A model generated the notes under the pieces. That model made no database searches. It was not told where the DNA came from and was given only the letters and a program-made list of their open reading frames with translations. DNA of 15,872 bases from Opitutales bacterium (GTDB lineage: Bacteria > Verrucomicrobiota > Verrucomicrobiia > Opitutales > JABSRG01): assembly GCA_049599475.1 (NCBI GenBank), contig JBMYOQ010000084.1, positions 1 to 15,872 on the forward strand, in the 5' to 3' direction. The translations under genes were made by a program, and so were the position numbers. Below, one piece after another: positions 264 to 15,472 of the stretch. Each line of letters begins with the position of its first letter. Position 1 is the stretch's first letter.

Positions 264-1385
264 CTAAACCGAAACGCCTGCCTCGGCCTTTGCCTTTTTG
301 CGCGCGTTTGATCGGGTGACCGCCTCTTCTACATCCATTGATTTGGATGTGAAATCTGCGTGGCCTGGCATCAGCAAGCTGCGGATTTCGCCAGCGGCTT
401 CTGTCGCATCCGAGTGATACAAAATGTATTCGGGGTCGTTCGGTGGGCGAGTTTCGTCGGGAGTGCGCATGGCGTTTTCCAGTTTGCCCATGCAAATGGC
501 CTTTGTCTCGTTTTGACCGAAACACAGTCCATAGCCTACCGAATAATGAGGAGCGGATTTTTTGCCACCACTGGCACCACGGCCCACCATTTCGCATTCG
601 GTGACATTGATGCGGCCAATGCAGCGTGTGCGACCGCGCGCATCTTTAACCGAAACGCGTGGGGTGCCGTAGCGTAATTCTCCGATCGTTCCGTGTCCGC
701 CGCCGTAGCCACGTTGGCTAGCATATCCATAAGCCATCAAGGCTCCAGTCTCTGCACGGCTGAGCGTTTGTAGAGCTGCTGCACGCGATTGGGGGTATTC
801 GATAGGCTCGCGGCTGGCATCGTAAACGGGATCTTTTCCGTCAGTTTCCGGATCCTCCGGTTTCATGAGGCCTTGTTCGCGCATCACGTCGATGACGCGG
901 CGGAAGTTGTAAATATCAGCTTCATCGGCTGCTTCCATGCCTGCTAGGAGCTCAGTGCGCAAATTTTCGGCAGATACCTCGTCTTCGTAAGCGATGTCGC
1001 ATTCGAGAAGGCGCTGCGTGTAGTCGCGGGTCGGGCCGAGGACTTGTCCGCCTGGAATTTCGCGGAAGGAGGAGGAGATCCGGCGCTCCATGAGCATGTT
1101 GGTCGTATCGATGACCTCGCTCGTGTATTTTTGCTTAAGCTGGATGCGGTGTGCGCGTAAAATTTCGGCCGCTTCGATGGCATCCCCTTCGGTTTGCTTC
1201 AGGGCAATTGCTGCAAGTTCGGGTGCAAAGAGCCCTGACTCGCTGAGGACGCGGTCCACCAGGAGGCGCATCTGACCGAGGATTTGCTCGATTTCTGCGG
1301 GTTCTGTTTGCTCGCGCAGGCGGTAAAACTCGGAGAGCTCGGCTGCGTTTTGAAGGGCTGACTCGATAGCGCTTACGGAATTCAT
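264..1385 (-). CDS. phnI: Divergent PhnI paralog (C-P lyase complex subunit I-like), 373 aa
   Basis: Colinear by eye with the operon PhnI: LALKQxEGD-like AIALKQTEGD, ERRISSSFREIPGGQVLGPTRDY, LSRAETG, GELRYG, GYGLCFGQNETKAI. The C-terminal HLKLPHY motif is replaced by SLLMPGH and the N-terminal YVAIKGGE is lost. Confidence 0.9.
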   Translation of the reverse strand: MNSVSAIESALQNAAELSEFYRLREQTEPAEIEQILGQMRLLVDRVLSESGLFAPELAAIALKQTEGDAIEAAEILRAHRIQLKQKYTSEVIDTTNMLMERRISSSFREIPGGQVLGPTRDYTQRLLECDIAYEDEVSAENLRTELLAGMEAADEADIYNFRRVIDVMREQGLMKPEDPETDGKDPVYDASREPIEYPQSRAAALQTLSRAETGALMAYGYASQRGYGGGHGTIGELRYGTPRVSVKDARGRTRCIGRINVTECEMVGRGASGGKKSAPHYSVGYGLCFGQNETKAICMGKLENAMRTPDETRPPNDPEYILYHSDATEAAGEIRSLLMPGHADFTSKSMDVEEAVTRSNARKKAKAEAGVSV

Positions 1386-1654: not shown

Positions 1655-2356
1655 ATGTCGGAACAATTCGAGGTCGTAATTATTGAGGATGAGGTGGATA
1701 TCTTGGCGCCGCTTCAATTCTGTTTTGAAGCGGAGGGCTTTGTGGTGCATTCTGCGGAGGATGGAATTCAGGGCTTGAATCTCGTTCGCCGCCAAGTGCC
1801 AAACCTGATCATTCTGGACTTGATGCTCCCGCGCATGGATGGCCTCAGTCTGTGTGAGGAAGTGCGCAGCGATTTCAGGACACGAGATATTCCGGTGATT
1901 ATGCTGACGGCTCAGGACAGCCAAATGGATGTCATTAATGGTTTGAGTCGAGGCGCTGATGATTACGTCACCAAGCCTTTTTCAACGCGTGAGCTCGTCG
2001 CACGTGCGCGGGCTGTTTTGAAGCGGGGTCGATTTGTTGATTCTGAAGATGCATTGCTGCGCTTAGGGCCGCTGACTTTATCTGAAGGGGAGCAGATTGC
2101 TCTATTGAATGGCCAAGATGTGCGCCTCACCCCTACGGAGTTTAAGCTCTTGCACTTTTTGGCTGTGAATGCGGGGAATGCATTTACCCGCAATGACTTG
2201 TTGGACAAAGTGTTTGGCGAGGATGCCTATGTCATTGATCGCAATATCGACGTGCATATCCGGGCGATTCGGAAGAAGTTGGATTGGCCTGAGCTTATTT
2301 TGACTTTGCGCGGGTTTGGCTACCGTCTTGAGCTTCCGAAAGGTCCTGAAGCCTAA
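1655..2356 (+). CDS. phoB: OmpR/PhoB-family response regulator, probably the phosphate regulon regulator
   Basis: Receiver motifs IIEDE, ILDLMLP, MLTA and GADDYVTKPFS. Winged-helix motifs LTPTEFKLL, RNIDVHIRAIRKKL and TLRGFGY. Adjacent to a PhoR-like kinase and phn genes. Confidence 0.85.
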   Translation: MSEQFEVVIIEDEVDILAPLQFCFEAEGFVVHSAEDGIQGLNLVRRQVPNLIILDLMLPRMDGLSLCEEVRSDFRTRDIPVIMLTAQDSQMDVINGLSRGADDYVTKPFSTRELVARARAVLKRGRFVDSEDALLRLGPLTLSEGEQIALLNGQDVRLTPTEFKLLHFLAVNAGNAFTRNDLLDKVFGEDAYVIDRNIDVHIRAIRKKLDWPELILTLRGFGYRLELPKGPEA

Positions 2357-2371
2357 CCGCAGCTAAATTTT

Positions 2372-3910
2372 GTGAGCTTTTTTTTGCGTCTGTTTTTGGG
2401 CTTTACCCTAATGGTTTTGGTCATTGCGGGCGGGATCAGTATTGTTTCGATTCACAGCCTGAGATCCTTGGCGGAACAGCGCATTTTGGATGAGTCGATA
2501 GTGAACGCCCAAACCTCTTCAGTTATGAATACTGGGGTTTCAGAAGAGCTGGATGCTGCATTTTTATTGGAGGGTTTAAATGAAGCGGCGTTGAAAGAGG
2601 AAACCCTTGCCATTGTCCAAAGCGTTTCGTTGGCTGCTGGGGTAAGCGTCTTGGGGTGTTTGGCATTTGGTTGGTTTTTTGCGAAACGGTTGACGCAGCC
2701 CCTCGCCGTGATTGACGAAGGTTGCCGAAAGATCCTGGTGGGAAATTTGAATTACCAAATTGATTTGCCGCGAGGTGATAATGGAGGGCGTGTGGCTGAG
2801 ACGATCAATAAAATGACGCAGGAGCTTAGCAAACGTATCCAGCAGTCCAGTCAGCAGCGGAACCGTATGGAATTAATATTACAATCCTTGCAGGATGCGG
2901 TGTTAATGGTCGATCGCCAGGGCACGATTATTTTCTTCAACTCTGCGGCAGGGGAGTACCTGGATATGTATGACAGATCATGGCCCTTTACCGTCGAAAA
3001 GCACGTAAAGCTCGAAGTCTTGAGGAAAGAAATATTTCGGCAGGCAGAGAAAGCGGCTTCGTCGCGCACCGTCTTATCTTGGGAGGGAGAAGCGGCCGAA
3101 AAGCGCTATGTGGAGCTCTTTACAGAGCCTTTGGATGGTGATCGTCATGACACGGATGGCATCCTGTGTGTGATGCGCGACCAGACTCAGGAGCGACGCT
3201 TTGAAGACCTCCGTCGCGCTTTTTCCTCGAACGTCTCTCATGAGCTCAAAACACCTATCGCTGCGATTGGAGCGCTGCTCGAGACGATCGAGACCTACCC
3301 AGAAATGGTAATGGAACAGCGCACGCATTTTAACCAACGGATTCGCCACCAGAATGATCGCATGCTACGCTTGGTAAACGAGCTTCTGGCGCTCTCTAAA
3401 TTAGAAAGCGGCAGTGAGATTCTCGACCTCTCAAACTGCGATTTAACTGAGATCCTCGACTCGGTTCAAAACACATTTTTGCTTCTGGCGGAGAAGCGGA
3501 ACATTTCGTTGATTTTCGCCTTTGATCGGGAGGCAGATTTTAATCTTACAGCCGACGCCAAAGCACTGGAAATTATCTTGAATTCGCTCATCGACAACTC
3601 CCTGCGGCATGGTCCGCGAGAAGGATGGGTGCGCCTCGATGCCAAACGGCAGGAAACGGATATCGAGATTCAAATTTCTGATAATGGCCCGGGCATTCCA
3701 CCAGATGCCCAGCCACGGATTTTCGAAAGGTTTTATCGAGTCGAAGAGTCCCGTTCGCGGGATCGCGGTGGCAGCGGTATGGGCCTCGCGATTGTGAAGC
3801 ATTTAGTCCAAGCCCACCAAGGCACAATCGATCTGATAAGCAGCAATCGAGCAGGGACGATTTTTAAGATTGTTCTGCCCTGCGATTTGAATGCGCGAGA
3901 TTTAAGCTGA
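2372..3910 (+). CDS. phoR: PhoR-like sensor histidine kinase (2 TM, HAMP, PAS-like, HisKA, HATPase); GTG start
   Basis: H-box SNVSHELKTP, N-box variant NSLIDNSLRHG, G1 SDNGPGIP, IFERFYRVEESRSR and G2 GGSGMGLAIVKH. It has two N-terminal hydrophobic segments and starts 15 bp after the regulator. Confidence 0.85.
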   Translation: MSFFLRLFLGFTLMVLVIAGGISIVSIHSLRSLAEQRILDESIVNAQTSSVMNTGVSEELDAAFLLEGLNEAALKEETLAIVQSVSLAAGVSVLGCLAFGWFFAKRLTQPLAVIDEGCRKILVGNLNYQIDLPRGDNGGRVAETINKMTQELSKRIQQSSQQRNRMELILQSLQDAVLMVDRQGTIIFFNSAAGEYLDMYDRSWPFTVEKHVKLEVLRKEIFRQAEKAASSRTVLSWEGEAAEKRYVELFTEPLDGDRHDTDGILCVMRDQTQERRFEDLRRAFSSNVSHELKTPIAAIGALLETIETYPEMVMEQRTHFNQRIRHQNDRMLRLVNELLALSKLESGSEILDLSNCDLTEILDSVQNTFLLLAEKRNISLIFAFDREADFNLTADAKALEIILNSLIDNSLRHGPREGWVRLDAKRQETDIEIQISDNGPGIPPDAQPRIFERFYRVEESRSRDRGGSGMGLAIVKHLVQAHQGTIDLISSNRAGTIFKIVLPCDLNARDLS

Positions 3911-4542: not shown

Positions 4543-5442
4543 CTACACCCCATTCCAATCAGTCGCCATGATGCGGTTGCTGAGCTCTGGGCCGGCTGTG
4601 AAGCAAAAGTAGATTTGTTCTCGATGGGTAAACCTTACCTCCATCCAGTTGGATCCACTGGTCCCGATGAGTTGTAGGCGTGATTCTGAATCGACCGCAT
4701 ACTCCTTTATCACCGGGCCGGAGCGCGGTAGTTGCGCATGGGGCATCACGGGTGTTATCGGGAAGCGATCTAAGGTCTCCGAAAAAGTGTATGGCATCCG
4801 GATGACCAAATCTGCTCGATCTCTTTGTTTGCGGACACACTCCATATGGGCCGCCAAAACACTGGTGCAGAAACTCCAAAAGACGTTTGCGAAATTTACG
4901 CGACCGTAGCGTTCGTAGAGCCCCCGATAGCTCCGGCGCAGCACGCGGCCAATGGCGCGCATTTCGACGTAAACCACGAAGTCTGCTTTATCGACGATCG
5001 AGCTATGGGCCGAGTAGAGGCCTTCGAAAAGAACGATGTCGCATGGGGTAAGCGTCTGGGTGCCTTCGTGGGAACGTTTTTGAAACACATACTTGGGGAT
5101 CTCGGCGGAGCGTCCCGACCGCAGATCTTCGAGCACTTTGGGGAGGTAGGCGAAGCCATAGTTTTCAGGGGCGTCCTGGCGATACCGGGGATTGAGGTCG
5201 CTCAGTTGCTCGGGCAGATTTTGGAAATTGTCCTGGTGAAATAACAGGGCTTGCGAGTCGAATGCCTTTTTGAGCGATTGCGCGACTTGGGTCGATTTGC
5301 CCGTAGCAGAGCCCCCGCAGATAGCAATGATGACAGGCCGTTGACGCTCGCGCTGAATCTGCTGGATCTGTTTCTTAAGCAGTTCGAAAACGGATGCGTC
5401 CCAGTTGAGTGCGCGATCTGAGTGGACTGTGAGCCGAGTCAT
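4543..5442 (-). CDS. Uridine kinase/phosphoribulokinase-family P-loop kinase with a C-terminal extension, 299 aa
   Basis: IIAICGGSATGKST Walker A, HQDNF, IPKYVF, IVLFEGLY, an RRxxRxxxERxGR-like lid and ADLVI. About 80 extra C-terminal residues. Substrate uncertain. Confidence 0.8.
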   Translation of the reverse strand: MTRLTVHSDRALNWDASVFELLKKQIQQIQRERQRPVIIAICGGSATGKSTQVAQSLKKAFDSQALLFHQDNFQNLPEQLSDLNPRYRQDAPENYGFAYLPKVLEDLRSGRSAEIPKYVFQKRSHEGTQTLTPCDIVLFEGLYSAHSSIVDKADFVVYVEMRAIGRVLRRSYRGLYERYGRVNFANVFWSFCTSVLAAHMECVRKQRDRADLVIRMPYTFSETLDRFPITPVMPHAQLPRSGPVIKEYAVDSESRLQLIGTSGSNWMEVRFTHREQIYFCFTAGPELSNRIMATDWNGV

Positions 5443-5589: not shown

Positions 5590-6012
5590 ATGGAATACGA
5601 CTCTGACTATATTTTGTGTGAGTGCGACCTCGATGCACTGAAAACACAGGTCGAACGCTTCGAAGAGCGCCTCGCGGTTCGCGTGACCAAGGAACCTGCG
5701 GTTTGCCTGACCATGGTACGCGCTGAGGACTCTCTCGAGCACCAAGAATTTTACCTCGGCGAGGCATTGACCACTGAGTGCGAAGTCGAGATCGACGGCG
5801 CAGCAGGCTACGGCTTGTGTCTCGGTGAGGAGCCCGTCCGCGGCTACTGCATCGCAGTCTTTGACGCGCTTCTTTACGGCAAGGATGAAGCCGACGCCGA
5901 AGCCCAATCTTTCATTTCTGAGCACACCGAGCTCGTTTCTCAAAAGGAACGCCAAGAGTTTGCCCGCACGCTGTCTACACGCGTCGACTTCAAACTCATG
6001 GAAGAAGACTAG
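5590..6012 (+). CDS. phnG: C-P lyase system protein PhnG, 140 aa
   Basis: LTMVRAEDS..EFYLGEALTTECEV, GYG, AVFDALL and C-terminal STRVDFKLM. First gene of the phnGHIJKL run. Confidence 0.92.
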   Translation: MEYDSDYILCECDLDALKTQVERFEERLAVRVTKEPAVCLTMVRAEDSLEHQEFYLGEALTTECEVEIDGAAGYGLCLGEEPVRGYCIAVFDALLYGKDEADAEAQSFISEHTELVSQKERQEFARTLSTRVDFKLMEED

Positions 6013-6030: not shown

Positions 6031-6102
6031 GGTAGGGGCAAGCGTCCCCGCTTGACCTTCCCAGAACCAAAATGCGGTCAACCGAGGACGGTTGCCCCTA
6101 CC
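6031..6102. repeat. Inverted pair of GTAG-type REP hairpins (REPIN-like doublet)
   Basis: ggtaggggcaagcgtccccgcttgacc (6031-6057, +) and the reverse complement of 6076-6102, ggtaggggcaaccgtcctcggttgacc. Confidence 0.85.
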
Positions 6103-6149
6103 AAATATTCAAAAGCCGATTTAACGGAATTATCCAATTTACCAATACC

Positions 6150-6761
6150 ATGATAGCACGCGAAGTCGTATTCGACGAAATTTTCGATTCCCAGGTATTA
6201 TTCCGATCCATTTTTGACGGAATGTCACGTCCAGGGAAAATCAATACTCTCAAATCTGTAGACATTTCTCCTCCAGAAGGCATCACGCGCGCTGCGTCAT
6301 TGGTGGCTTTTTCCCTTTTGAATGATGATGTCTCTGTGATGCTCGCCGAGCCAAATGAGGAAGTCGCTGATTACCTGCGCGGTAATACCGCGGTGCGCGA
6401 AGCTTCCGTTGCAGATGCTGATTTTATCATCGGGACTCCTGAGAATACGCTCACACTTATCGAACCATCCAAAGAAGGTGATCCGCTCTATCCTGAGCAA
6501 TCAGCGAGCTTTGTGTTGATGCTCGAAGATTTCGCAGAGGAGCCCGTGCAGGACGGACTTTGCCTTTTACTTTCAGGGCCTGGCATTAAGGATACTAAGA
6601 AAATTTTTGTATCCGGTTTTTCAGACAAATGGATACAGGAGCGCGCGGAGAAAAACTGTGAGTTCCCGCTGGGTGTCGACGTCATTTTGACCACTGAGAA
6701 AAATGGCGAGTGCTTTGTGACCTGCCTTCCGCGCACAACTAAAATCGAAGTCGTTCTTTAA
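6150..6761 (+). CDS. phnH: C-P lyase system protein PhnH (start revised from 6072 to the ATG at 6150)
   Basis: DSQVLFRSIFDGMSRPG, GDPLYPEQSA, LSGPGIK, FPLGVDVIL and CLPRTTKI. The upstream in-frame extension from 6072 runs through a REP. Confidence 0.9.
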   Translation: MIAREVVFDEIFDSQVLFRSIFDGMSRPGKINTLKSVDISPPEGITRAASLVAFSLLNDDVSVMLAEPNEEVADYLRGNTAVREASVADADFIIGTPENTLTLIEPSKEGDPLYPEQSASFVLMLEDFAEEPVQDGLCLLLSGPGIKDTKKIFVSGFSDKWIQERAEKNCEFPLGVDVILTTEKNGECFVTCLPRTTKIEVVL

Positions 6762-6784: not shown

Positions 6785-7957
6785 ATGGGATACGTAGCAA
6801 TTAAAGGAGGCGAAACAGCAATTCAGAATGCTGAGCGCCTAGTCGCTTTTTATCGAGTAAAGAGCAAGACCACGCCTCTCGAAGTGGAGCAGATTCGTAC
6901 CCAGTTTCGTAAGGCACTGGATAAGATTATGAGCGAAGGCTCACTCTACGCTCCAGAGCACGCTGCGCTTGCGCTCAAGCAAGTGGAGGGAGATTTATTT
7001 GAAGGCGCTTTCATGCTCCGCGCATTCCGTGCCACGCTGAACCGCTCTTATTTTTCTGAGATGCTGGATACGGATTCGATGCAGATCGAGCGCCGTGTTT
7101 CTTCAGCTTTTCGCGATATCCCGGGTGGGCAGGTTTTAGGGCCGACACGTGATTACGTTTTGCGTCTCCTGAATACGGATATCGTTAAAGAATCATTGGG
7201 CTCTGTTTCCAGTTTCCTGTCCGAGCAAGAGCGTAAAGAGTTGGCTGAAGGCGCTTCGCCGGATGCGTCTCAATTCCCGCGGATTATCAATTTCCTCAAG
7301 GAGCGTGGGCACCTGAAGCCGTCTCCTGAAAAGAAGAACGAGCGCGTATTTGATGTGACTCGTGAAGCGGTCAAATACCCGGCACCGCGCAGCGCCACCA
7401 TGCAGATGCTGGCACGTGGCGAGCAGGGCGGCATGACCTCGATGGCCTACAGTTCTGTGCGCGGTTTCGGTGATATGGAGCCGAGTGTTGGCGAATTGCG
7501 TGTTGGAAAATGCCAAGTAAAGGTGCGCGATCGCCGCAACCGTGTGCGCTGCATCGGACGCATTCGCCTCACCGAGGCCGATGTCGTTACCAAGGTGAAA
7601 GAGGGCAACCGTGACAAGGTGCCTTACATGACGCACGGTTACGGACTCTGCTTCGGACAGAACGAGCTAAAGGCCGTGAGCATGGCCATTTTGGACCGCG
7701 CAATCCGCTACGGCGATGAGGAAGAACCCGCCTGCCAGCAAGAGTTTGTCCTCTACCACACAGAAGGCGTCGAATCATACGGATTTACCAACCACCTCAA
7801 GCTGCCACACTATGTGACTTTCCAAAGCGGTCTGAGCAATGTGCGCCAGGCTATGCAGCGCAAGGAAGAAGCTCAAAGGAAGGCTGCCTTTGGGGTGACG
7901 GGAACAGATGCCAAGAAGATTAAGGATATTCCTGATCCACGCAGCATGTATCGCTAA
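6785..7957 (+). CDS. phnI: C-P lyase complex subunit PhnI, 390 aa
   Basis: MGYVAIKGGE, ALKQVEGDLFEGAFMLRAFR, RRVSSAFRDIPGGQVLGPT and GFTNHLKLPHYVTFQ (H337/H342 intact). Confidence 0.96.
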   Translation: MGYVAIKGGETAIQNAERLVAFYRVKSKTTPLEVEQIRTQFRKALDKIMSEGSLYAPEHAALALKQVEGDLFEGAFMLRAFRATLNRSYFSEMLDTDSMQIERRVSSAFRDIPGGQVLGPTRDYVLRLLNTDIVKESLGSVSSFLSEQERKELAEGASPDASQFPRIINFLKERGHLKPSPEKKNERVFDVTREAVKYPAPRSATMQMLARGEQGGMTSMAYSSVRGFGDMEPSVGELRVGKCQVKVRDRRNRVRCIGRIRLTEADVVTKVKEGNRDKVPYMTHGYGLCFGQNELKAVSMAILDRAIRYGDEEEPACQQEFVLYHTEGVESYGFTNHLKLPHYVTFQSGLSNVRQAMQRKEEAQRKAAFGVTGTDAKKIKDIPDPRSMYR

Positions 7958-7983: not shown

Positions 7984-8901
7984 ATGATCGAGACAAAGAA
8001 ATTTGAACGTAGCTACAACTACGGTTTTATCGATGAGACGACGAAGAAGGAAATTCGCCGCAAGATGCTAAAAGCGGCGGCGATCCCTGGCTATCAGGTT
8101 CCTTATTCTTCTCCTGAAATGCCGATCTCTCGCGGGTGGGGCACCGGCGGCCTGCACGCTACTCTCTCGCTTATCGGTAAGGAAGACGTATTCAAAATTA
8201 TCGATCAGGGCAGCGATGCGAGTGTCAACGCCTGCAACTTGCGCGACTTCGTCAAGCGCATGACTGACTGCGAGACGACTTTTGATACTGCCGACGCGAC
8301 CATCATTCAGACGCGTCACCGGATCACTGAGGAGGTTTTAAACGAGAACCAAATCATCGTGTTCCAAGTGCCACAGCCGGAGATTCTTCGAAGTGTTGAG
8401 CGCTACGAATATAAGACTCGTCAAATGCACGCAGAGGCGGATTACGCCAAGATGTGGGTGAGCCTTTACGAGAGCTACGTGAAGTTCGGCGCAATCATGC
8501 GCGGAGCGGGATACCCTGTCCGTGTAAATGGTCGCTACGTCATGAGCCCATCTCCGATTCCACGTTGGGATGTACCTAACCTCAGTGACTCAGATAATAT
8601 CAATGTTTTTGCAGCAGGTCGTGAGAAACGCATCTACGTCGTCCCACCACACACGACTGTCGAGCCGCTGGAATTCGAAGACGTGCGTTTCACTGTTGAA
8701 AACTTTGACGGAATCAAATGTGCGGCATCCGGTGAAGACGATGCATTCATGGATGAAATCTACGCAACAGACGGCTCTCAGAGTTATGTGATCAACGATT
8801 CCAACTTCTTAGACAAGGTCCGCGTCCCCGATCACGAGCGCCCGAAACAGCGCCTGTTTAAATACCAACAAGAAAAGAACATAGGGGCATCTCGCCTGTA
8901 G
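7984..8901 (+). CDS. phnJ: PhnJ homolog (PRPn C-P lyase-like) lacking the canonical CX2CX21CX5C motif, 305 aa
   Basis: YNYGFIDETTKKEIRR, AIPGYQVP, GWGTGG, KIIDQG, IQTRHRI, PSPIPRWD and AGREKRIY. The C-terminal segment reads CAAS...YVINDSNFL. Confidence 0.95.
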   Translation: MIETKKFERSYNYGFIDETTKKEIRRKMLKAAAIPGYQVPYSSPEMPISRGWGTGGLHATLSLIGKEDVFKIIDQGSDASVNACNLRDFVKRMTDCETTFDTADATIIQTRHRITEEVLNENQIIVFQVPQPEILRSVERYEYKTRQMHAEADYAKMWVSLYESYVKFGAIMRGAGYPVRVNGRYVMSPSPIPRWDVPNLSDSDNINVFAAGREKRIYVVPPHTTVEPLEFEDVRFTVENFDGIKCAASGEDDAFMDEIYATDGSQSYVINDSNFLDKVRVPDHERPKQRLFKYQQEKNIGASRL

Positions 8902-8925: not shown

Positions 8926-9780
8926 ATGGTTTCACTTTCCAAAGACGAACAATGGTTGCTCCGCGTGCGCGGTTTGCAAAAAATCTACGGCGAGCCTTGC
9001 TCAAGCACCATTCAATACACAGGCCCTAAATTTGGGTCGAACATCTGCCCAGAGACCGACGCTATCGTTGCATGTGCTGAAGTAGATTTTGATCTTTATC
9101 CAGGTGAAGTGCTGGGTGTTGTGGGCGAATCTGGATCGGGTAAGTCGACCCTCGTTCAGCTCCTTTATTTTGACAATGAAGCCACCGGCGGAGAAGTTTA
9201 TTTCCGTGACTTCGAAGGCGGGCAGACCAATCTGCTGACGATTTCAAATCAGAAAAAACGCTACATGCGCAATCACCTCATGGGGATGGTGTATCAGAAT
9301 CCACGTGACGGTTTGAATTTCAAATTTTCGGCGGGCGGTAATATCGCAGAAAAGCTTTTGATGGCCGGTAATTTCCACGTCGGAAATATCCGCGATCGTG
9401 CGAGTGGCCTTCTCGACAAAACAGAAGTTCCGGTAAAGCGCATGGACAGCATGCCCGGCCACTTCTCAGGCGGTATGCAGCAGCGTGTGCAAATCTCAAA
9501 AGCAATCGCGAACAACCCGCCGATCGTCTTCCTCGACGAGGTGACCACCGGTCTCGACGTCTCCGTTCAGGCTAAGGTTCTGGACCTTATCCGTGGTCTC
9601 CAGCAAGAGCTCGGAATTTCCATGATTGTTGTGTCCCACGATTTGAGTGTCATCCGTATGCTCACTGACCGCACCATGGTCATGAAAAATGGGCGCATCG
9701 TCGAATCAGGATTGACCGATCAAATTCTCCAAGACCCGCAACACGCTTACACACAACTCCTCGTAAGCAGTCTTCTCTAA
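8926..9780 (+). CDS. phnK: C-P lyase system ABC-type ATPase PhnK, 284 aa
   Basis: FDLYPGEVLGVVGESGSGKST, YQNPRDGL, AGGNIAEKL, FSGGMQQR, LDEVTTGLDVSVQA and ESGLTDQILQDPQHAYTQLLVSS. Confidence 0.94.
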   Translation: MVSLSKDEQWLLRVRGLQKIYGEPCSSTIQYTGPKFGSNICPETDAIVACAEVDFDLYPGEVLGVVGESGSGKSTLVQLLYFDNEATGGEVYFRDFEGGQTNLLTISNQKKRYMRNHLMGMVYQNPRDGLNFKFSAGGNIAEKLLMAGNFHVGNIRDRASGLLDKTEVPVKRMDSMPGHFSGGMQQRVQISKAIANNPPIVFLDEVTTGLDVSVQAKVLDLIRGLQQELGISMIVVSHDLSVIRMLTDRTMVMKNGRIVESGLTDQILQDPQHAYTQLLVSSLL

Positions 9781-9854: not shown

Positions 9855-10583
9855 ATGACACCGATTCTCGAAGTCAACAATCTGCGCAAGTCATTTCTGC
9901 TCTACATCCTGAATGACAAAAAGATCGAAGCTCTCGACGATGTAACCTTCAGTCAAAATGAGGGAGAAATTGTTGGCCTCACAGGTAAGTCGGGTTCGGG
10001 TAAGTCCAGCCTCATGAAGTGCATCTATCGCACTTACCTGTGTAACTCTGGCGAGATGATCTACCAATCTGAGATTTATGGATCGATTGATTTGCTGAAG
10101 GCCACCGAGCACCAAATCCTACGCATTCGCCAAGAGGAAATGACCTACTGCTCGCAGTTCCTCAGCGTGATTCCACGGGTTCCTGCCGTCGAAGTGGTTG
10201 CAGCTCGTTTGCTCCAAGAAGGGGTCGCCTACGACGAGGCTATGGAGCGTGCACGGACCATGCTCGATAAGCTCGGCCTGCCACGTGAGCTTTGGGACGC
10301 ATTTCCTTCAACATTCTCTGGCGGTGAGCAGCAACGTATTAACGTCGCCCGTGCAATTCTTGGTAAGCCACGCTATCTCTTGATCGACGAGCCTACTGCA
10401 TCGCTTGACCCGAAGACCAAAGACGTCGTCATCGACATGATTTTGGGCCTCAAGGATGCAGGCACTTCAGTAATGCTCATCACCCACGACAAATATGCTC
10501 TCGAGCGCATGTCGGACCGCCGCCTCCACTTGGCACATGGTCGTCTGGAAGAGGTTGAAGTGGCATCGACCCTAGCGCTTTAA
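9855..10583 (+). CDS. phnL: C-P lyase system ATPase PhnL, 242 aa
   Basis: GKSGSGKSSLMKCIYRTY, SQFLSVIPRV, LWDAFPSTFSGGEQQRINVAR and DEPTASLD. Confidence 0.94.
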   Translation: MTPILEVNNLRKSFLLYILNDKKIEALDDVTFSQNEGEIVGLTGKSGSGKSSLMKCIYRTYLCNSGEMIYQSEIYGSIDLLKATEHQILRIRQEEMTYCSQFLSVIPRVPAVEVVAARLLQEGVAYDEAMERARTMLDKLGLPRELWDAFPSTFSGGEQQRINVARAILGKPRYLLIDEPTASLDPKTKDVVIDMILGLKDAGTSVMLITHDKYALERMSDRRLHLAHGRLEEVEVASTLAL

Positions 10584-10590
10584 TCGATCC

Positions 10591-11544
10591 ATGAAAAAGT
10601 GTATCCAGAGAGGCCTTACAGCAAGTATTGCTTTAGCTCTCTCTGCTTTCTTAGTCGGTTGTGGTTCGGATGAGCCGGAAACAATCGTAATGGAAAATGG
10701 CGAGGTCTGGCCTGCGAAGGTAGTCTATGCTTACACGCCCTCGCAGGAGGAGCCGGAAGGGCGCTTAGAACGCTATGAAAAGCTTGCCGAGTATCTCACT
10801 TCGCAGATCGGTGTAGACGTTGAATTGATACGCTCTTCGAACTACGGTCCCACGATCGAAGCGATGCGTGCTGACAAAGTGGATATCGCCTCTGGCGGAT
10901 CATTCATGTATATGATCGCTCACGAAAAGGCGGGCGCTGAAGCGATTGCAACGCGTGGTTCGATAGGAGGGGAACGCGACTCTTACCACTCACTCATCGC
11001 GACAAGTCCGAAGACGGGAATTAAAACGCTCGAAGATTTGATCGCGGGTGGAGAGGAATACTCCTTTGCGTTCACAGATGCGGCATCGACATCGGGTCAC
11101 CTCGTGCCGCGAGGTGCTTTCGAATCGATGGGCGTGAACCCAGAAGATGTCTTCAAGGAAGTCGTGTTTACGCAAAGTCACTTAAACGTCGTGATGGCGA
11201 CCGTTGCTGCAAAAGTCGATGCTGGGGCTATGAATGGTAGCACCTACACGCGATTTATTCGGGATGGGAGAATTAAGGAAGAAGAACTCATTGTGTTGTG
11301 GAAATCGGGTGACATTCCGACCTCACCGATTTTCGTTCGCAGCGAACTTCCCGAAGGCCTGAAGGCTGCCGTCCGCGAAGCCTACGTAAATATGCACATC
11401 CACGCTCCCGATCTATTGCAGGGCTTCCGTGACAGAGCGATGCGCCCCAATATGGTATACATCGAGGCGAACGACGCGATGTGGGATGGTTTGCGCGAAA
11501 CAGCTTACAACCTCGATACGATGACACTCCTCAGTGGGGGATAA
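10591..11544 (+). CDS. phnD: Phosphonate/phosphite ABC transporter substrate-binding lipoprotein PhnD, 317 aa
   Basis: Signal peptide with lipobox LVGC, YGPTIEAMR, FAFTDAASTSGHLVP, SH and LWKSGDIP. Followed by phnC and phnE. Confidence 0.9.
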   Translation: MKKCIQRGLTASIALALSAFLVGCGSDEPETIVMENGEVWPAKVVYAYTPSQEEPEGRLERYEKLAEYLTSQIGVDVELIRSSNYGPTIEAMRADKVDIASGGSFMYMIAHEKAGAEAIATRGSIGGERDSYHSLIATSPKTGIKTLEDLIAGGEEYSFAFTDAASTSGHLVPRGAFESMGVNPEDVFKEVVFTQSHLNVVMATVAAKVDAGAMNGSTYTRFIRDGRIKEEELIVLWKSGDIPTSPIFVRSELPEGLKAAVREAYVNMHIHAPDLLQGFRDRAMRPNMVYIEANDAMWDGLRETAYNLDTMTLLSGG

Positions 11545-11768: not shown

Positions 11769-12584
11769 ATGCTTGAAGTAAAGAACCTCACAAAGACCGT
11801 AAAAAACGGGAAGACCATTCTAAACGGTATTTCGTTTCGCGTTGAAGCCGGTGAGTTTGTCGGCGTTCTTGGGCCTAGCGGAGCTGGAAAATCATTGTCG
11901 ATTCGCTGTGTGCTTGGGCTGACCAAAGCCTCGTCTGGCGACATCTATTTCGAAGATAATAAAGACCGCATCTATCATTTGACGCAATTGAGCGGTAAGA
12001 AACTCCGCTATGCTCGCATGAAGATGGGTGTGATTTTCCAAGGGTCTAACTTGGTGCGACGGTTAACTGTATTGGAAAATGTGATGCTAGGCCGCTTGGC
12101 GCGCATCCCTTCTTGGCGCAGTTGGTTGTATGGTTTTACTGATGATGAGGCGAGGCGCGCGATGAAGGCGCTCAGCCAAATTGGAATGGGTGAATATGCG
12201 GGCCGTCTTACCGGTTCACTGTCTGGTGGCGAAATGCAGCGCGTCGCCATCGCTCGCGCTATTAATCAAAACCCAGCCTTATACATTGCGGACGAACCCG
12301 TGAGCAGCCTGGACCCGAAGAATGCGCGCTCCATCATGCGTTTGCTTGCCCCGCTTGCGGCGGAGAAGGGAGTCCTCGGCGTCTTTCACCAACCAGACCT
12401 TGTCGCGAAATTCTGCACGCGTATGGTTGGGTTGCGTGACGGGAAAGTAATCTATGATGGCACACCGAGCACCGATCCTGATTTGCTGCGCTCCATTTAT
12501 GGAGAGGAGCTTGACGAGCTGGCCGATATCTCGAATTTGACGCTGCACGAGGATGATCCCTTCGAAGCGCGCGTAAAGGCTTAG
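11769..12584 (+). CDS. phnC: Phosphonate ABC transporter ATP-binding protein PhnC, 271 aa
   Basis: GPSGAGKS, GVIFQ..NLVRRLTVLENVMLGRL, LSGGEMQRVAIARA, ADEPVSSLDP and an HQ H-loop. Confidence 0.93.
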   Translation: MLEVKNLTKTVKNGKTILNGISFRVEAGEFVGVLGPSGAGKSLSIRCVLGLTKASSGDIYFEDNKDRIYHLTQLSGKKLRYARMKMGVIFQGSNLVRRLTVLENVMLGRLARIPSWRSWLYGFTDDEARRAMKALSQIGMGEYAGRLTGSLSGGEMQRVAIARAINQNPALYIADEPVSSLDPKNARSIMRLLAPLAAEKGVLGVFHQPDLVAKFCTRMVGLRDGKVIYDGTPSTDPDLLRSIYGEELDELADISNLTLHEDDPFEARVKA

Positions 12585-12589
12585 AGACC

Positions 12590-13420
12590 ATGGGAAGCGT
12601 CACACAGATGGACCCTTCGCAGCATGCCGCGCTCAAGCCGTATGGTCCCAATAAAAAATGGCGCCTGCTGGGTCGTCTCTTTTTTGTTCTACTGATCGTA
12701 GGTCTTGCCTCATGGCGAGTCGAAGTCGACATCATCACGCTTATCAAAGATCTTCCTGAAGGCTTGGATCGCAGTAAGGATTTCTTTAATCCGCTCTTTA
12801 GCGCGATTCCCGAGCTTATTGTTCCGGCTTTTGTCCTGATTCTTCTAGCACTGATCCCGACGCCGATCGGAGTTATTTTAGCGATCCCTGTCTCCTTTTT
12901 GGCGTCTAGTAACATCGTTCCAGCTTGGGTCCGTAATATCACGCGCACTTGCATCACAATTCAACGGGGAGTTCCTGAGATTGTCGTGATGGTCTTGATG
13001 ACGGCTGCCTTTGGATTGGGGGCCTACCCCGGCATTATGGCTATTACGATTGGCTCCATAGGCATGCTGGCAAAACTCTTTGCAGACGCGATTGAAGAGG
13101 TAGAAGAAAAGGCTTTGGAATCCCTTGAGTGCACGGGGGCGACTAAATGGCAGGTCGTGCGCTATGGGATTATTCCCGAAGTCATCCCAACGATTATTTC
13201 GAACTCGATTTTTCGTTTTGAAATCAACATGCGTCAGGCCGGCTTGTTAGGCGCGGTGGGCGCTGGGGGGCTCGGCTATGAGTTGAGCACATCCATGCTT
13301 GCTCTAGAATATGAACGCGCGGCTGCAGTTATCTTGATGCTTCTTCTACTGATATTCGCTGCTGAAAAACTATCCGATTGGTTGCGCTCTAGAATCTTTA
13401 AAGGAGATGATTTTAAATGA
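12590..13420 (+). CDS. phnE: Phosphonate ABC transporter permease PhnE (first copy), 276 aa
   Basis: RGVPEIV, GLGAYPG, GMLAKLFADAIE, RFEINMRQA..LGAVGAGGLG and multiple TM segments. Confidence 0.92.
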   Translation: MGSVTQMDPSQHAALKPYGPNKKWRLLGRLFFVLLIVGLASWRVEVDIITLIKDLPEGLDRSKDFFNPLFSAIPELIVPAFVLILLALIPTPIGVILAIPVSFLASSNIVPAWVRNITRTCITIQRGVPEIVVMVLMTAAFGLGAYPGIMAITIGSIGMLAKLFADAIEEVEEKALESLECTGATKWQVVRYGIIPEVIPTIISNSIFRFEINMRQAGLLGAVGAGGLGYELSTSMLALEYERAAAVILMLLLLIFAAEKLSDWLRSRIFKGDDFK

Positions 13421-14241
13421 GCGAGAGTATCGAAGTGCCATCCGAACTGCTCCCATCGCGTAAGTTCCTCAAAAACCTTGGAATTTTCGCGGGCATACTC
13501 GGCTTCCTGATTGCTGCCTTTATTTACCTGGGCACGAACCCCTTCATGTTCTTCACGGAGTTTCATTACGTAGCGAATCTATTTAAGGATATGGTGCCGC
13601 CGAATGCTGATTTGTTTGTATCGGAAAAGTTATGGGCTTCCATGGCCCAAACGGTATCGATGGCATTTCTTGGGACCTTTGGGGGCGGCTTCCTCGCCTT
13701 CGTAATGGCATTTTTCGCTGCGCGCAATACGGCGCCCAATGCGTTTACGCGAGCAGCTTTTCGGGCGTTCCTTGCATTGCAACGTGTCGCCCCGGATTAC
13801 GCGATCATGCTCGTGATTATCACTACGGTAGGTTTTGGCCCCTTCGCAGGCACGATTGCCTTGATTATTGGTTCCACCGGTATGTTCGGAAAATTTTTCG
13901 CGGACGCGATTGAAAACGTGAACAGCAAGCCGCAAGAGAGCGTGCGCGTGCTCGGCGCTTCAAAGACTCAAGAAATCCGATACGGAATCGTGCCGCTCGT
14001 GCTGCCTAGCTTCGTAGCAAATGGATTCTTCCTTTTGGAAATCAATATGGGCGCTGCCATTGCGCTAGGAGTTTATGGCGGAGGGGGCCTCGGCTTCCAC
14101 CTGAACGTTGCCGGAGACACTCTGCAATACAAGGACCTACTCGCCTATGTGCTCTTTATCCTGGTGTTGATGATTTGTATCGAGCGTGTCTCAGACTTTT
14201 TCCGCAAACGCATCTTCAACAAAGGGGTCACGCTGAAATGA
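13417..14241 (+). CDS. phnE: Phosphonate ABC transporter permease PhnE (second copy), 274 aa
   Basis: ATGA overlap with the first phnE. TVSMAFLGT, GFGPFAG, GMFGKFFADAIE and LEIN..ALGVYGGGGLG. Confidence 0.92.
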   Translation: MSESIEVPSELLPSRKFLKNLGIFAGILGFLIAAFIYLGTNPFMFFTEFHYVANLFKDMVPPNADLFVSEKLWASMAQTVSMAFLGTFGGGFLAFVMAFFAARNTAPNAFTRAAFRAFLALQRVAPDYAIMLVIITTVGFGPFAGTIALIIGSTGMFGKFFADAIENVNSKPQESVRVLGASKTQEIRYGIVPLVLPSFVANGFFLLEINMGAAIALGVYGGGGLGFHLNVAGDTLQYKDLLAYVLFILVLMICIERVSDFFRKRIFNKGVTLK

Positions 14242-14278: not shown

Positions 14279-15472
14279 ATGTCTAACGCCACTATCATAT
14301 CCAATGCGCGTGTTGTAACGCGTACCGAAAATTTTGAAGGTTCTGTTGTCATTGAAGACGGAATTATCGCAGAAATTATCAAAGAACGCACCTACGCCGA
14401 AGGCATCGATGCGAGGGGTCGCTGGTTGACTCCGGGGGTGATTGATACCCATACGGATTACATCGAAAAGGAAATCGCGCCCCGTCCCAGTGCCGAAATT
14501 CCTCTAGAGCTTGCCTTTCACATGATGGATCAGCGCGCAATTGCTACGGGCTTGACGACCGTGCTGGGTGCGGTCCGCGTATCGGCTGACAAGGAAAAGA
14601 AAGGCTCCATGTGGCGCCGTGATGGGCTTGAGCTAGGACGCCGTTACGAAGAGCTATCCAAGACGGCGAAGGCACGCCACCTCATGCATGTGCGCTGGGA
14701 TACCAATTTCCAGCCTGCTGACCCCAAGATCGATGTCCTCAAAACGTTCACTACTTTAGGCAACATCGTCTACAACGAGAATATCCCCGGCGAGCGTCAG
14801 TTCCGTGATCTTAAAGAGCTCGCGAAGAAATTTGCAGATCGCCAGGGAATCACACCCGAAGAGGCACTCAAGAACCTTCAGGAGAAAATTGAAACCAATC
14901 GAGGCATCAACAATCGTCCTCAGGTGCGTGATACATTTTCCGGCAATGTACCTCTCGGCAGTCATGACGACACGACGATCGAACACGTGATCGAAGCCCA
15001 TGCCATGGGGTGTTCGATTGCTGAGATGCCCACTACATCGGAAGCCGCACAAAAGGCCAAAGACCTCGGCTTAATAGTCATCATGGGCGCGCCCAATTAC
15101 TACCGTGGCGGTTCTCACTGCGGCAATGTAGGAGCTCCGGAAGCTTTTCAAAAGGGACTCATGGACGTACTATGCAGCGACTACCATTTCCCATCCCTCC
15201 TTGGCAGTGTGTGCAAAATGTTTGCTGAAGGTATCGACCCTTCAAAGGCCGTAAACTTGGTCACCTACAATGCCGCAAAGGCTCTCAACCGAGACGAAAA
15301 AATCGGCTCGATCGAAGTCGGAAAGCTCGCAGACCTCACGCTCTTTGCTTCGCACCCAAATTATGCAGAAGTCACCCACACCTGGATCGGCGGCGAACTC
15401 GTCTACCAAAGCACACACGCAGTAGGTGTAGAACGCCACCAAGACGCCAGGCAGCTGCTCAATCAGCTATAG
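14279..15472 (+). CDS. phnM: Alpha-D-ribose 1-methylphosphonate 5-triphosphate diphosphatase PhnM (amidohydrolase fold), 397 aa
   Basis: PGVIDTHTD, GSHDD, AEMP, MGAPN..RGGSH.GNV, LCSDY and GSIEVGKLADL. Confidence 0.94.
   Translation: MSNATIISNARVVTRTENFEGSVVIEDGIIAEIIKERTYAEGIDARGRWLTPGVIDTHTDYIEKEIAPRPSAEIPLELAFHMMDQRAIATGLTTVLGAVRVSADKEKKGSMWRRDGLELGRRYEELSKTAKARHLMHVRWDTNFQPADPKIDVLKTFTTLGNIVYNENIPGERQFRDLKELAKKFADRQGITPEEALKNLQEKIETNRGINNRPQVRDTFSGNVPLGSHDDTTIEHVIEAHAMGCSIAEMPTTSEAAQKAKDLGLIVIMGAPNYYRGGSHCGNVGAPEAFQKGLMDVLCSDYHFPSLLGSVCKMFAEGIDPSKAVNLVTYNAAKALNRDEKIGSIEVGKLADLTLFASHPNYAEVTHTWIGGELVYQSTHAVGVERHQDARQLLNQL

Follow-up and report, generated by a model that had tools for sequence, protein, structure and literature searches.

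A conserved PhnJ branch without three of the four cysteines of the E. coli C-P lyase site, found in a complete phn operon of an Opitutales bacterium

Results

A PhnJ variant in a complete phn operon

The stretch of DNA analysed here (hereafter the window; 15,872 nucleotides, positions 1 to 15,872 of contig JBMYOQ010000084.1) is an entire contig of the 4.68-Mb genome of an Opitutales bacterium (assembly GCA_049599475.1; 146 contigs, 96.6% complete), and it carries on the + strand a complete operon for carbon-phosphorus (C-P) lyase, phnGHIJKL-phnDCEE-phnM, in which every frame is open. Here, as in the loci of its lineage, phnJ lies between phnI and phnK within the phnGHIJKLM cluster. In the canonical scheme for E. 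coli PhnJ, C241, C244 and C266 bind a 4Fe-4S cluster, the thiyl of C272 attacks phosphorus and Gly32 carries the radical (PMC7916636, PMC9947105). We report that the PhnJ of the window retains the first of these four Cys alone, and that it is a member of a distinct, old, large and well-conserved branch of the family, which we call lineage A.

Two samples were used to follow conservation. A search of 5.8 billion proteins provided the best 120 matches (query included), which are 71–100% identical to the window PhnJ, and from a collection of species genomes 80 loci were kept, namely 65 with the same pattern as the window, one cut short (L076) and 14 of the four-Cys type. The lineage A rows cited below (n = 66) are the window and the 65 genome loci, some subunit alignments having fewer rows; they are compared with 23 other rows (three of a second branch, lineage B, and 20 four-Cys forms), giving 89 rows overall. 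A library of representatives at 50% identity was of little use, its matches being mostly fragments and frame-shifted pieces.

The PhnJ translation is an open frame of 305 residues with Cys at positions 84, 96 and 246 only, in agreement with the count in an earlier note on this DNA. The protein matches PF06007 with 407.6 bits against a cut-off of 25 (profile positions 2–272 of 275), and HMMER aligns it with E. coli PhnJ (4xb6_D) at an E value of 1.9e-87, pairing query residues 10–276 with residues 6–272 of the chain through one single-residue gap, with about 50% identity over 267 residues. This alignment confirmed the central claim of the earlier note, that three of the four E. coli Cys are replaced by Ser, Ile and Leu, and showed its placement of the segment at 8719–8811 to be exact; the assignments of Gly32 to G36 (in IPGYQ) and of His108 to H112 (in TRHR) were likewise as claimed. 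The positions in question are as follows.

8719..8811, + strand: C-terminal segment with the former Cys site; C246 is kept, and S249, I270 and L276 replace C244, C266 and C272
8719-8721, + strand: C246, codon tgt, equivalent to E. coli C241 in the HMMER alignment; kept
8728-8730, + strand: S249, codon tcc, equivalent to E. coli C244 in the HMMER alignment
8791-8793, + strand: I270, codon atc, equivalent to E. coli C266 in the HMMER alignment
8809-8811, + strand: L276, codon tta, equivalent to E. coli C272 in the HMMER alignment
8089..8091, + strand: codon of G36 (IPGYQ), equivalent to the E. coli Gly32 radical site; Gly in 66/66 lineage A, 3/3 lineage B and 20/20 four-Cys rows
8314..8319, + strand: codons of R111-H112 (TRHR), equivalent to the E. 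coli ligand-binding residues R107/H108; invariant in all 89 rows
8233..8235, + strand: codon of C84 (tgc), equivalent to E. coli V80; Cys in 66/66 lineage A rows and in 0/23 other rows (V, S or A)
8269..8271, + strand: codon of C96 (tgc), equivalent to E. coli V92; Cys in 54/66 and Val in 12/66 lineage A rows
8155..8157, + strand: codon of H58 (cac), equivalent to E. coli Q54; His in 66/66 lineage A rows, Gln in 19/19 four-Cys and 3/3 lineage B rows

The CX2CX21C ligand set (C241, C244, C266) is therefore absent from this PhnJ, in which the C241 equivalent alone remains. The thiyl position is also without Cys, being L276 in the window and Leu or Met in 66/66 lineage A rows. Both the alignment and the lineage-wide pattern support the statement of the earlier note that the canonical CX2CX21CX5C site is gone, and, judged from the aligned residues, the iron-sulfur radical mechanism of the E. 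coli enzyme cannot apply as written to the PhnJ of the window.

The ATC and TTA codons each lie two base changes from TGT or TGC, as noted earlier, while TCC is one change from a Cys codon. Four further proteins of 305 residues in the same 90% cluster, from other assemblies, have YVINDSNFLDK. The earlier view that a sequencing error was unlikely has been borne out by the recurrence of the pattern in other assemblies, in 120/120 best matches and in 66/66 lineage rows.

The AF2 model of PhnJ has an overall pLDDT of 75.6, with low confidence in the central insertion (residues 135–173), and reproduces the E. coli PhnJ fold, with its PhnH-like core, central insertion and C-terminal domain. Foldseek matched the model to 7z17_D and 4xb6_D with E values of 2.6e-28 to 1e-26 and TM of 0.75–0.76. 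The E. coli protein, which in the Phn(GHIJ)2K/L complex (4XB6, 7Z15–7Z19) is the C-P lyase of alpha-D-ribose 1-methylphosphonate 5-phosphate, is thus resembled by the window PhnJ in its fold (TM 0.76), its operon partners and the residues equivalent to Gly32, G47-T50, DQG, R107, H108, Q124, C241 and D268. The two differ in that C244, C266 and C272 are Ser, Ile and Leu in the window PhnJ, which has in addition the new invariant residues C84, H58, P44, S42, N199 and N271.

The variant is conserved, under selection and the sole PhnJ of its genomes

In 120/120 best matches the four positions read Cys, Ser or Thr, Ile, Val or Met, and Leu or Met; the named sources among these matches are Verrucomicrobiota, Opitutaceae, Bryobacteraceae, Vicinamibacterales and Bacteroidota. 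The same C/[ST]/[IVM]/[LM] pattern is present in 66/66 lineage A rows, which span two phyla, and the conserved replacement motif can be written as C-[AS]-x-[ST]-G ... A-F-[LM]-D-E ... V-[IVM]-N-D-S-[ND]-F-[LM]-D-K. Further changes specific to the lineage, each in 66/66 rows, are Q54 to H58, R40 to P44, G38 to S42, K195 to N199 and S267 to N271 (E. coli residue first), and H58, P44 and S42 lie in or beside the loop that lines the ligand pocket of the E. coli enzyme (PMC9947105).

The 14 four-Cys PhnJs of the genome collection are actinobacterial and 51–56% identical to the window protein. One of them, L069 (10001-10756, Spongiactinospora gelatinilytica), no longer follows the related sequences past the CxxC (YLPAAMLAAAMRLA), suggesting a frameshift or a shortened C-terminus. 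Among the lineage A loci, the operon L052, from a metagenome-assembled genome labelled Beijerinckiaceae, is nested among Chitinophagaceae on the tree, and either transfer or a binning error is possible.

Comparison with the nearest locus, L004, whose PhnJ is 95% identical, gave pN (nonsynonymous) of 0.024 and pS (synonymous) of 0.764, synonymous sites being saturated; of the subunits compared, PhnJ and PhnK show the tightest constraint. The strong purifying selection for which the earlier note had proposed a test is supported by these values. The PF06007 search of the 96.6%-complete genome returned one match, the variant phnJ itself, and the variant is likewise the sole PhnJ in 5/5 other lineage genomes examined, two of them from the cultured strains Mucilaginibacter polytrichastri RG4-7 and Parasediminibacterium paludis CECT 8010. 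The second, Cys-containing phnJ whose existence the earlier note had raised was not found in the genome with PF06007, nor do the 263 bases past the solo phnI at the start of the contig encode anything PhnJ-like. Because the variant is the sole phnJ, stands in a complete operon, shows pN/pS of 0.024/0.764 and recurs as the same pattern in 120/120 matches and 66/66 rows, it is not a decaying copy. A sequencing error or pseudogene is ruled out by that pattern together with pN/pS and the copies in other assemblies.

In the sample of the phylum, PhnJ was present in 3/401 genomes, the window genome and two with four-Cys forms, and it was found in 0/400 further Bacteroidota genomes, too rare an occurrence for proportions. 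In the literature we found no description of PhnJs without these Cys, subscription journals being mostly outside the search.

A second Cys-poor branch and the universal core

Three plasmid-borne PhnJs, of Thermus thermophilus HB8 pVV8 (L087, phnJ at 7995-8876), Rhizobium sp. 11515TR and Haematobacter massiliensis, contain just one or two Cys, none of them at the C244, C266 and C272 positions, and represent lineage B in the alignments. A search with the Thermus PhnJ retrieved 120 relatives (P0271-P0390), of which seven have no Cys, 92 have one, 20 have two and a single one has three. The C244, C266 and C272 positions are without Cys in all 120, while at the C241 equivalent 110 have Cys, six Ser and four Asp; across PhnI, PhnJ, PhnK, PhnL and PhnM, this position is the sole Cys column common to the three lineage B loci. 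Among the relatives with a named source are those of Thermus, Meiothermus, Deinococcus, Anaerolineae, Roseiflexaceae, Oscillochloris and hot-spring Synechococcus/Thermostichus; Chloroflexota and some Rhizobium and Haematobacter plasmids are part of the branch. Lineage B resembles lineage A in the absence of Cys at the C244, C266 and C272 positions and in the conserved catalytic core, but it has no C84, H58 or P44 (Ala or Ser, Gln and Arg stand there instead), its PhnI is more divergent and its PhnK is without the N-terminal insert described below.

One lineage B protein, P0396 (ABD01166.1), has two Cys and comes from a hot-spring Synechococcus that is probably Synechococcus sp. JA-2-3B'a(2-13), alias OS-B'. 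In the light, OS-B' reportedly gives off methane and ethane. For Synechococcus JA-2-3B'a(2-13), a complete phn cluster and growth with phosphonates as sole phosphorus source are described (PMC5955973, citing Adams 2008), and release of methane from methylphosphonate by such cyanobacteria is stated in PMC5955973 and PMC6962044, both citing Gomez-Garcia 2011.

A set of residues is kept in lineage A (66 rows for PhnJ, 61 for PhnI), lineage B (three) and the four-Cys forms (20): G32, G47-W-G-T50, D70-Q-G72, R107, H108, Q124 and D268 in E. coli numbering of PhnJ, together with H328/H333 of PhnI. Variants within this core are minor, namely W/F at 48, S/T at 50 and D/E/A at 268 (17 D, two E and one A among the four-Cys rows).

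On an unrooted tree of 46 rows built from all columns, lineage A has a support of 100 and A plus B of 96, the four-Cys forms being the rest. The Cys-poor PhnJs of lineage A thus form a clade with conserved replacement residues (120/120, 66/66), as the earlier note had envisaged. A second tree, of 51 rows, included further lineage B sequences and left out the C-terminal domain as well as columns 84 and 96; on it, support for lineage A was 99 and A plus B was not recovered; the approximately unbiased test on the 51-row alignment did not reject A plus B (p 0.40).

Candidate ligands within PhnJ and in partner subunits

In lineage A both C246 and C84 are invariant (66/66). C96 is present in 118/120 best database matches, but the 12/66 lineage A rows with Val at this position (a group of Mucilaginibacter, Sediminibacterium and Sphingobacterium) have just two Cys per protein, and Cys at 96 also occurs in 9/23 other rows, all of them four-Cys PhnJs and none lineage B. 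Since C96 is Val in 12/66 rows, the lineage as a whole does not share a substitute three-Cys site within PhnJ. In the AF2 model a helix is predicted at residues 81–94 (pLDDT 86–90), with C84 as its fourth residue and C96 two residues beyond its end; helix geometry would probably put the two Cys about 15 Å apart. A cubane site formed by C84, C96 and C246 is unlikely, and this triad was rejected as a lineage property on three grounds: Val at 96 in 12/66, the position of C84 and C96 on either side of a helix, and the presence of C96 in four-Cys PhnJs. Of the alternative cluster ligands that the earlier note had named as able to overturn its reading, an invariant C84 and a frequent C96 do exist; as a set they break down in the two-Cys proteins with Val at 96.

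Gly72 of the DQG loop is 9–10 Å from Cys272 in E. coli (PMC7916636). It lies eight residues before V80, the equivalent of C84, so that C84 may sit beside the former site.

Invariant Cys are also found in other subunits of the lineage. In PhnG, C77 is present in 54/54 lineage rows and all six Cys (C10, C12, C39, C64, C77 and C87) in 30/54; E. coli PhnG and five rows of the four-Cys type have no Cys at five of the six positions, and 4/5 of these rows have Cys at 64. PhnL has C99 in 59/59 lineage rows (Val in 21/22 others), and PhnM has C299 in 45/46.

PhnK has C41 and C50 in 61/61 lineage rows, both within an N-terminal insert. In the window this insert (residues 23–50), which is absent from E. 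coli PhnK, still has C25, C41 and C50. The PhnKs of four-Cys systems (haloarchaeal, Thiothrix, Marinobacter) have a fuller CxxC...CPxCG insert resembling a zinc ribbon, and by this comparison the C41/C50 pair appears to be what is left of an insert once richer in Cys. As the home of a new cluster the insert was rejected, being fuller in four-Cys systems and absent in lineage B.

No radical-SAM gene in the operons

We found no radical-SAM (S-adenosylmethionine) gene in the window or in the lineage operons. Elsewhere in the genome PF04055 has 10 matches, all on contigs other than the window, and TIGR02494, the family of activases of the pyruvate formate-lyase (PFL) type, is represented by one gene (185 bits summed over two pieces) directly after pflB. 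With these two genes the organism can form a glycyl radical enzyme, and a facultatively anaerobic way of life is probable. The pflB-pflA pair, on contig C13 (L097:2985-6076, + strand), follows an MFS transporter gene.

TIGR02494 exceeded its cut-off in 0/5 other lineage genomes. The earlier note had suggested that PhnJ may receive its radical in trans; for a classical glycyl-radical activase as the donor, co-occurrence gives no backing. As a conserved partner the PFL-type activase is not supported either, the copy in this genome adjoining its own pflB and none exceeding the cut-off in the five others. By analogy, the variant PhnJ may resemble PflB with PflA, in which a conserved Gly is the proposed radical carrier and a nearby Cys the thiyl, and without a built-in cluster it would need an outside activator; the folds are unrelated, however, and no activase gene lies in or near the phn operons.

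Downstream pathway genes

After phnGHIJKL/phnM, most Bacteroidota loci have a hexapeptide acyltransferase (35 loci) and a protein of about 270 residues (38 loci). The latter had no Pfam or NCBIfam match, but its two HxT motifs, H101-Q-T103 and H202-x-T204, show little or no variation among 37 sequences. Its AF2 model (pLDDT 94.2) gave 23 PDB matches with E <= 0.001, led by 2H-family entries; the top Foldseek matches were 2fsq (E 1.7e-7) and the Arabidopsis Appr>p cyclic phosphodiesterase 1fsi, and LigT was also matched. With two H-x-T/S motifs and the 2H fold, the accessory protein belongs to the 2H phosphoesterases. It is like 1FSI and Atu0111 (2FSQ) in both features, and its activity is a prediction from this likeness.

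In the window genome the 2H-fold gene lies on a contig other than that of the phn operon, and has a second PhnM paralogue (NF011990, 405 bits) as its neighbour. This accessory cluster, on contig C69 (L096:5438-10219, − strand), comprises the 2H-fold gene, the PhnM paralogue, GrpB, GDPD and a hexapeptide acyltransferase.

PhnN is encoded in the genome (206.5 bits, cut-off 156), and the best PhnP match there stayed under its cut-off (57.9 against 272). PF06299 (DUF1045) had no match in the genome; the control was also without a match, hence this result is uninformative. PhnP, of the metallo-beta-lactamase fold, hydrolyses ribose 1,2-cyclic phosphate, and the modelled fold of the lineage 2H protein would suit it to the same job. 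Lineage A would then differ from the E. coli system in using a 2H-fold phosphodiesterase in place of PhnP, and it differs also in having a Cys-rich PhnG. The presence of a 2H phosphodiesterase and PhnN fits the usual product, ribose 1,2-cyclic phosphate.

Operon layout and neighbouring genes

The remaining genes of the window are listed below.

5590..6012, + strand: phnG (PF06754 and TIGR03293)
6072..6761, + strand: phnH (PF05845 and TIGR03292)
6785..7957, + strand: phnI (PF05861, 417.6 bits); H337/H342 are equivalent to E. coli H328/H333
7984..8901, + strand: phnJ, the 305-residue lineage A form (PF06007, 407.6 bits)
8926..9780, + strand: phnK, with N-terminal insert (TIGR02323, 248 bits, below the cut-off of 302.85)
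9855..10583, + strand: phnL (TIGR02324, 240 bits, below the cut-off of 256.3)
10591..11544, + strand: phnD (Phosphonate-bd; TIGR01098 over cut-off)
11769..12584, + strand: phnC (ABC_tran)
12590..14241, + strand: two phnE (BPD_transp_1)
14279..15472, + strand: phnM (NF011990, 282.5 bits, cut-off 233)
1655..3910, + strand: PhoB/PhoR-like two-component pair upstream of the phn operon; best NCBIfam matches all below cut-off
264..1385, − strand: solo second phnI paralogue (PF05861, 335.6 bits) at the contig start and not followed by a phnJ
4543..5442, − strand: P-loop kinase of the uridine-kinase/phosphoribulokinase family, divergent, adjoining phnG

Lineage A operons have the order phnGHIJKL, transporter genes and phnM, and this gene order is common to the Verrucomicrobiota and Bacteroidota loci. 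The two-component pair scored 215 bits for PhoB and 293 and 258 bits for PnpS/PhoR, all under the NCBIfam cut-offs, and in Opitutaceae loci a PhoB/PhoR-like pair likewise lies upstream of the phn operon. A PD-(D/E)XK gene is also located upstream of the operon in the window. At the residue equivalent to H219 of E. coli PhnI, the solo paralogue has retained His; the operon copy carries Glu (E232) and departs in this from 59/61 lineage PhnIs. The P-loop kinase is 74–79% conserved in the nearest relative, L004, and 29% in L020.

Discussion

We consider it somewhat probable that the operon encodes a working C-P lyase, with PhnJ as its catalytic subunit, which carries out the same net reaction without a three-Cys cluster in PhnJ, the thiol being provided by C246, C84 or both. 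The net reaction would most likely be the conversion of 5-phosphoribosyl-1-phosphonate to an alkane and 5-phosphoribosyl 1,2-cyclic phosphate, with catalysis resting on conserved residues, namely Gly36, the D74-Q75-G76 loop, R111/H112/Q128 and the PhnI His pair. The former C266 and C272 positions are hydrophobic (I270, L276) and that of C244 is Ser or Thr, while C246 remains, paired with the invariant C84 and H58. In such an enzyme the thiol of C84 or C246 would take the thiyl or nucleophile role given to C272 in E. coli, and the initiating radical would not come from a three-Cys 4Fe-4S SAM cluster in PhnJ; it would have to come either from a partner in trans or from a site shared with another subunit. 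The 2H enzyme would then open the cyclic phosphate, and PhnN would turn the product into phosphoribosyl pyrophosphate.

Several observations weigh against this proposal. Our literature search found no growth or methane data for any member of lineage A, and no radical source was found in the operons, the activase family exceeding its cut-off in 0/5 other lineage genomes. The PhnJ of the window itself has three Cys, so a metal site of C84/C96/C246 or of C84/C246/H58 may exist there, and the invariant Cys seen in the alignments of PhnG, PhnK, PhnL and PhnM could supply ligands. If C84 lies near the former site, as the E. coli distances suggest by analogy, this may favour a rebuilt metal site. Finally, lineages A and B may have lost the Cys together or separately, A plus B having a support of 96 on one tree and not being recovered on the other.

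The first alternative, that the cluster has been rebuilt, so that a radical-SAM 4Fe-4S cluster is ligated otherwise and the remaining chemistry is unchanged, appears to us rather unlikely. Its candidate ligands are C84/C96/C246, C84/C246 with H58, or C84/C246 with a Cys of PhnG, PhnK or PhnL at an interface. Radical-SAM clusters built from Cys distant in sequence are known, for example in Dph2, which speaks for such an arrangement, as does the finding that C84 and H58 (66/66 each) arose together with the loss and in no other branch. C96 is present in 54/66 loci and 118/120 matches, lineage-specific invariant Cys occur in PhnG (C77), PhnK (C41/C50) and PhnL (C99), and the DQG loop just before C84 is 9–10 Å from Cys272 in E. 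coli (PMC7916636). Yet the 12/66 lineage PhnJs with C84 and C246 only mean that there is no universal three-Cys set inside PhnJ, and C84 and C96 flank a predicted helix of 14 residues, with Cys96 occurring also in four-Cys PhnJs. To our knowledge there is no precedent for a His ligand on a SAM-cleaving cluster, which tells against the set that includes H58. Moreover, a rebuilt cluster would leave no Cys for the thiyl, and lineage B, the nearest branch on the full-alignment tree, has 0–1 Cys in 99/120 PhnJs, with the C241 equivalent as the only Cys column that its three loci share across PhnI, PhnJ, PhnK, PhnL and PhnM.

We regard as improbable a different chemistry or substrate, in which a non-radical, metal-assisted cleavage takes place at the PhnI-PhnJ site, or a more labile substrate is used, perhaps with no alkane released. 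Active-site-loop residues that are invariant elsewhere are changed in 66/66 rows (R40 to P44, G38 to S42, Q54 to H58), and the operon PhnI has Glu where 59/61 lineage PhnIs keep the His of E. coli H219. The PhnI-PhnJ His/Zn site, whose residues are all kept, is the sole ligand site, with ribose cyclic phosphate, in the E. coli structures (PMC9947105). Set against this, the invariance of Gly36 and IPGYQ is hard to explain without radical chemistry, the transporter is of the PhnD/PhnCDE type, and the standard pathway is matched by the presence of PhnM, PhnN and a cyclic phosphodiesterase. The more labile P-X bond proposed in the earlier note fits poorly with a system that includes PhnI/G/H/L, PhnM, PhnN, a 2H phosphodiesterase and a PhnD-type transporter. 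Breaking an unactivated C-P bond heterolytically is, in addition, chemically very unfavourable, and lineage B organisms are reported, by secondary citation, to use methylphosphonate (PMC5955973).

That the copy is decaying or inactive, its Cys lost with a disused pathway, is close to refuted: C-P lyase is rare and patchy in the phylum (3/401), which points to a probably acquired and perhaps dispensable operon, but the frames are open, pN/pS is 0.024/0.764, the pattern extends over 66/66 rows in two phyla and 120/120 best matches, the replacement residues are themselves conserved, and the variant is the sole PhnJ in 6/6 lineage genomes examined.

A working C-P lyase without the three-Cys cluster leads to a wider proposal, which we put forward tentatively and as a possibility that we would not rate as high as the reading on which it builds: C-P cleavage by C-P lyase may need no iron-sulfur cluster in PhnJ, lineages A and B using the universal core with a radical obtained by an unrecognised, possibly oxygen-tolerant route, and the four-Cys site of E. 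coli being a lineage-specific addition. About 30 Å separates the putative Fe4S4 site, Gly32 and the ligand-binding Zn site from one another in every E. coli structure, and the E. coli enzyme has been reconstituted anaerobically only (PMC9947105, PMC7916636). If true, the proposal would explain why the four-Cys site lies about 30 Å from Gly32 in every E. coli structure.

The mechanism of C-P lyase is still unsettled, and the pathway is nonetheless credited with methane in oxic waters. phnJ is in wide use as a marker gene for methylphosphonate-derived methane, and in some studies the presence of "four conserved cysteines" is checked as a sign of function, for example in PMC11978286; the PhnJs of both branches would fail such a check, or would be counted with a presumed function. 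Conserved PhnJs without the cluster and thiyl Cys constitute a natural mutagenesis experiment, which may reveal the truly universal residues of the enzyme, and the PhnJs of lineages A and B are candidates for an oxygen-tolerant or differently initiated C-P lyase.

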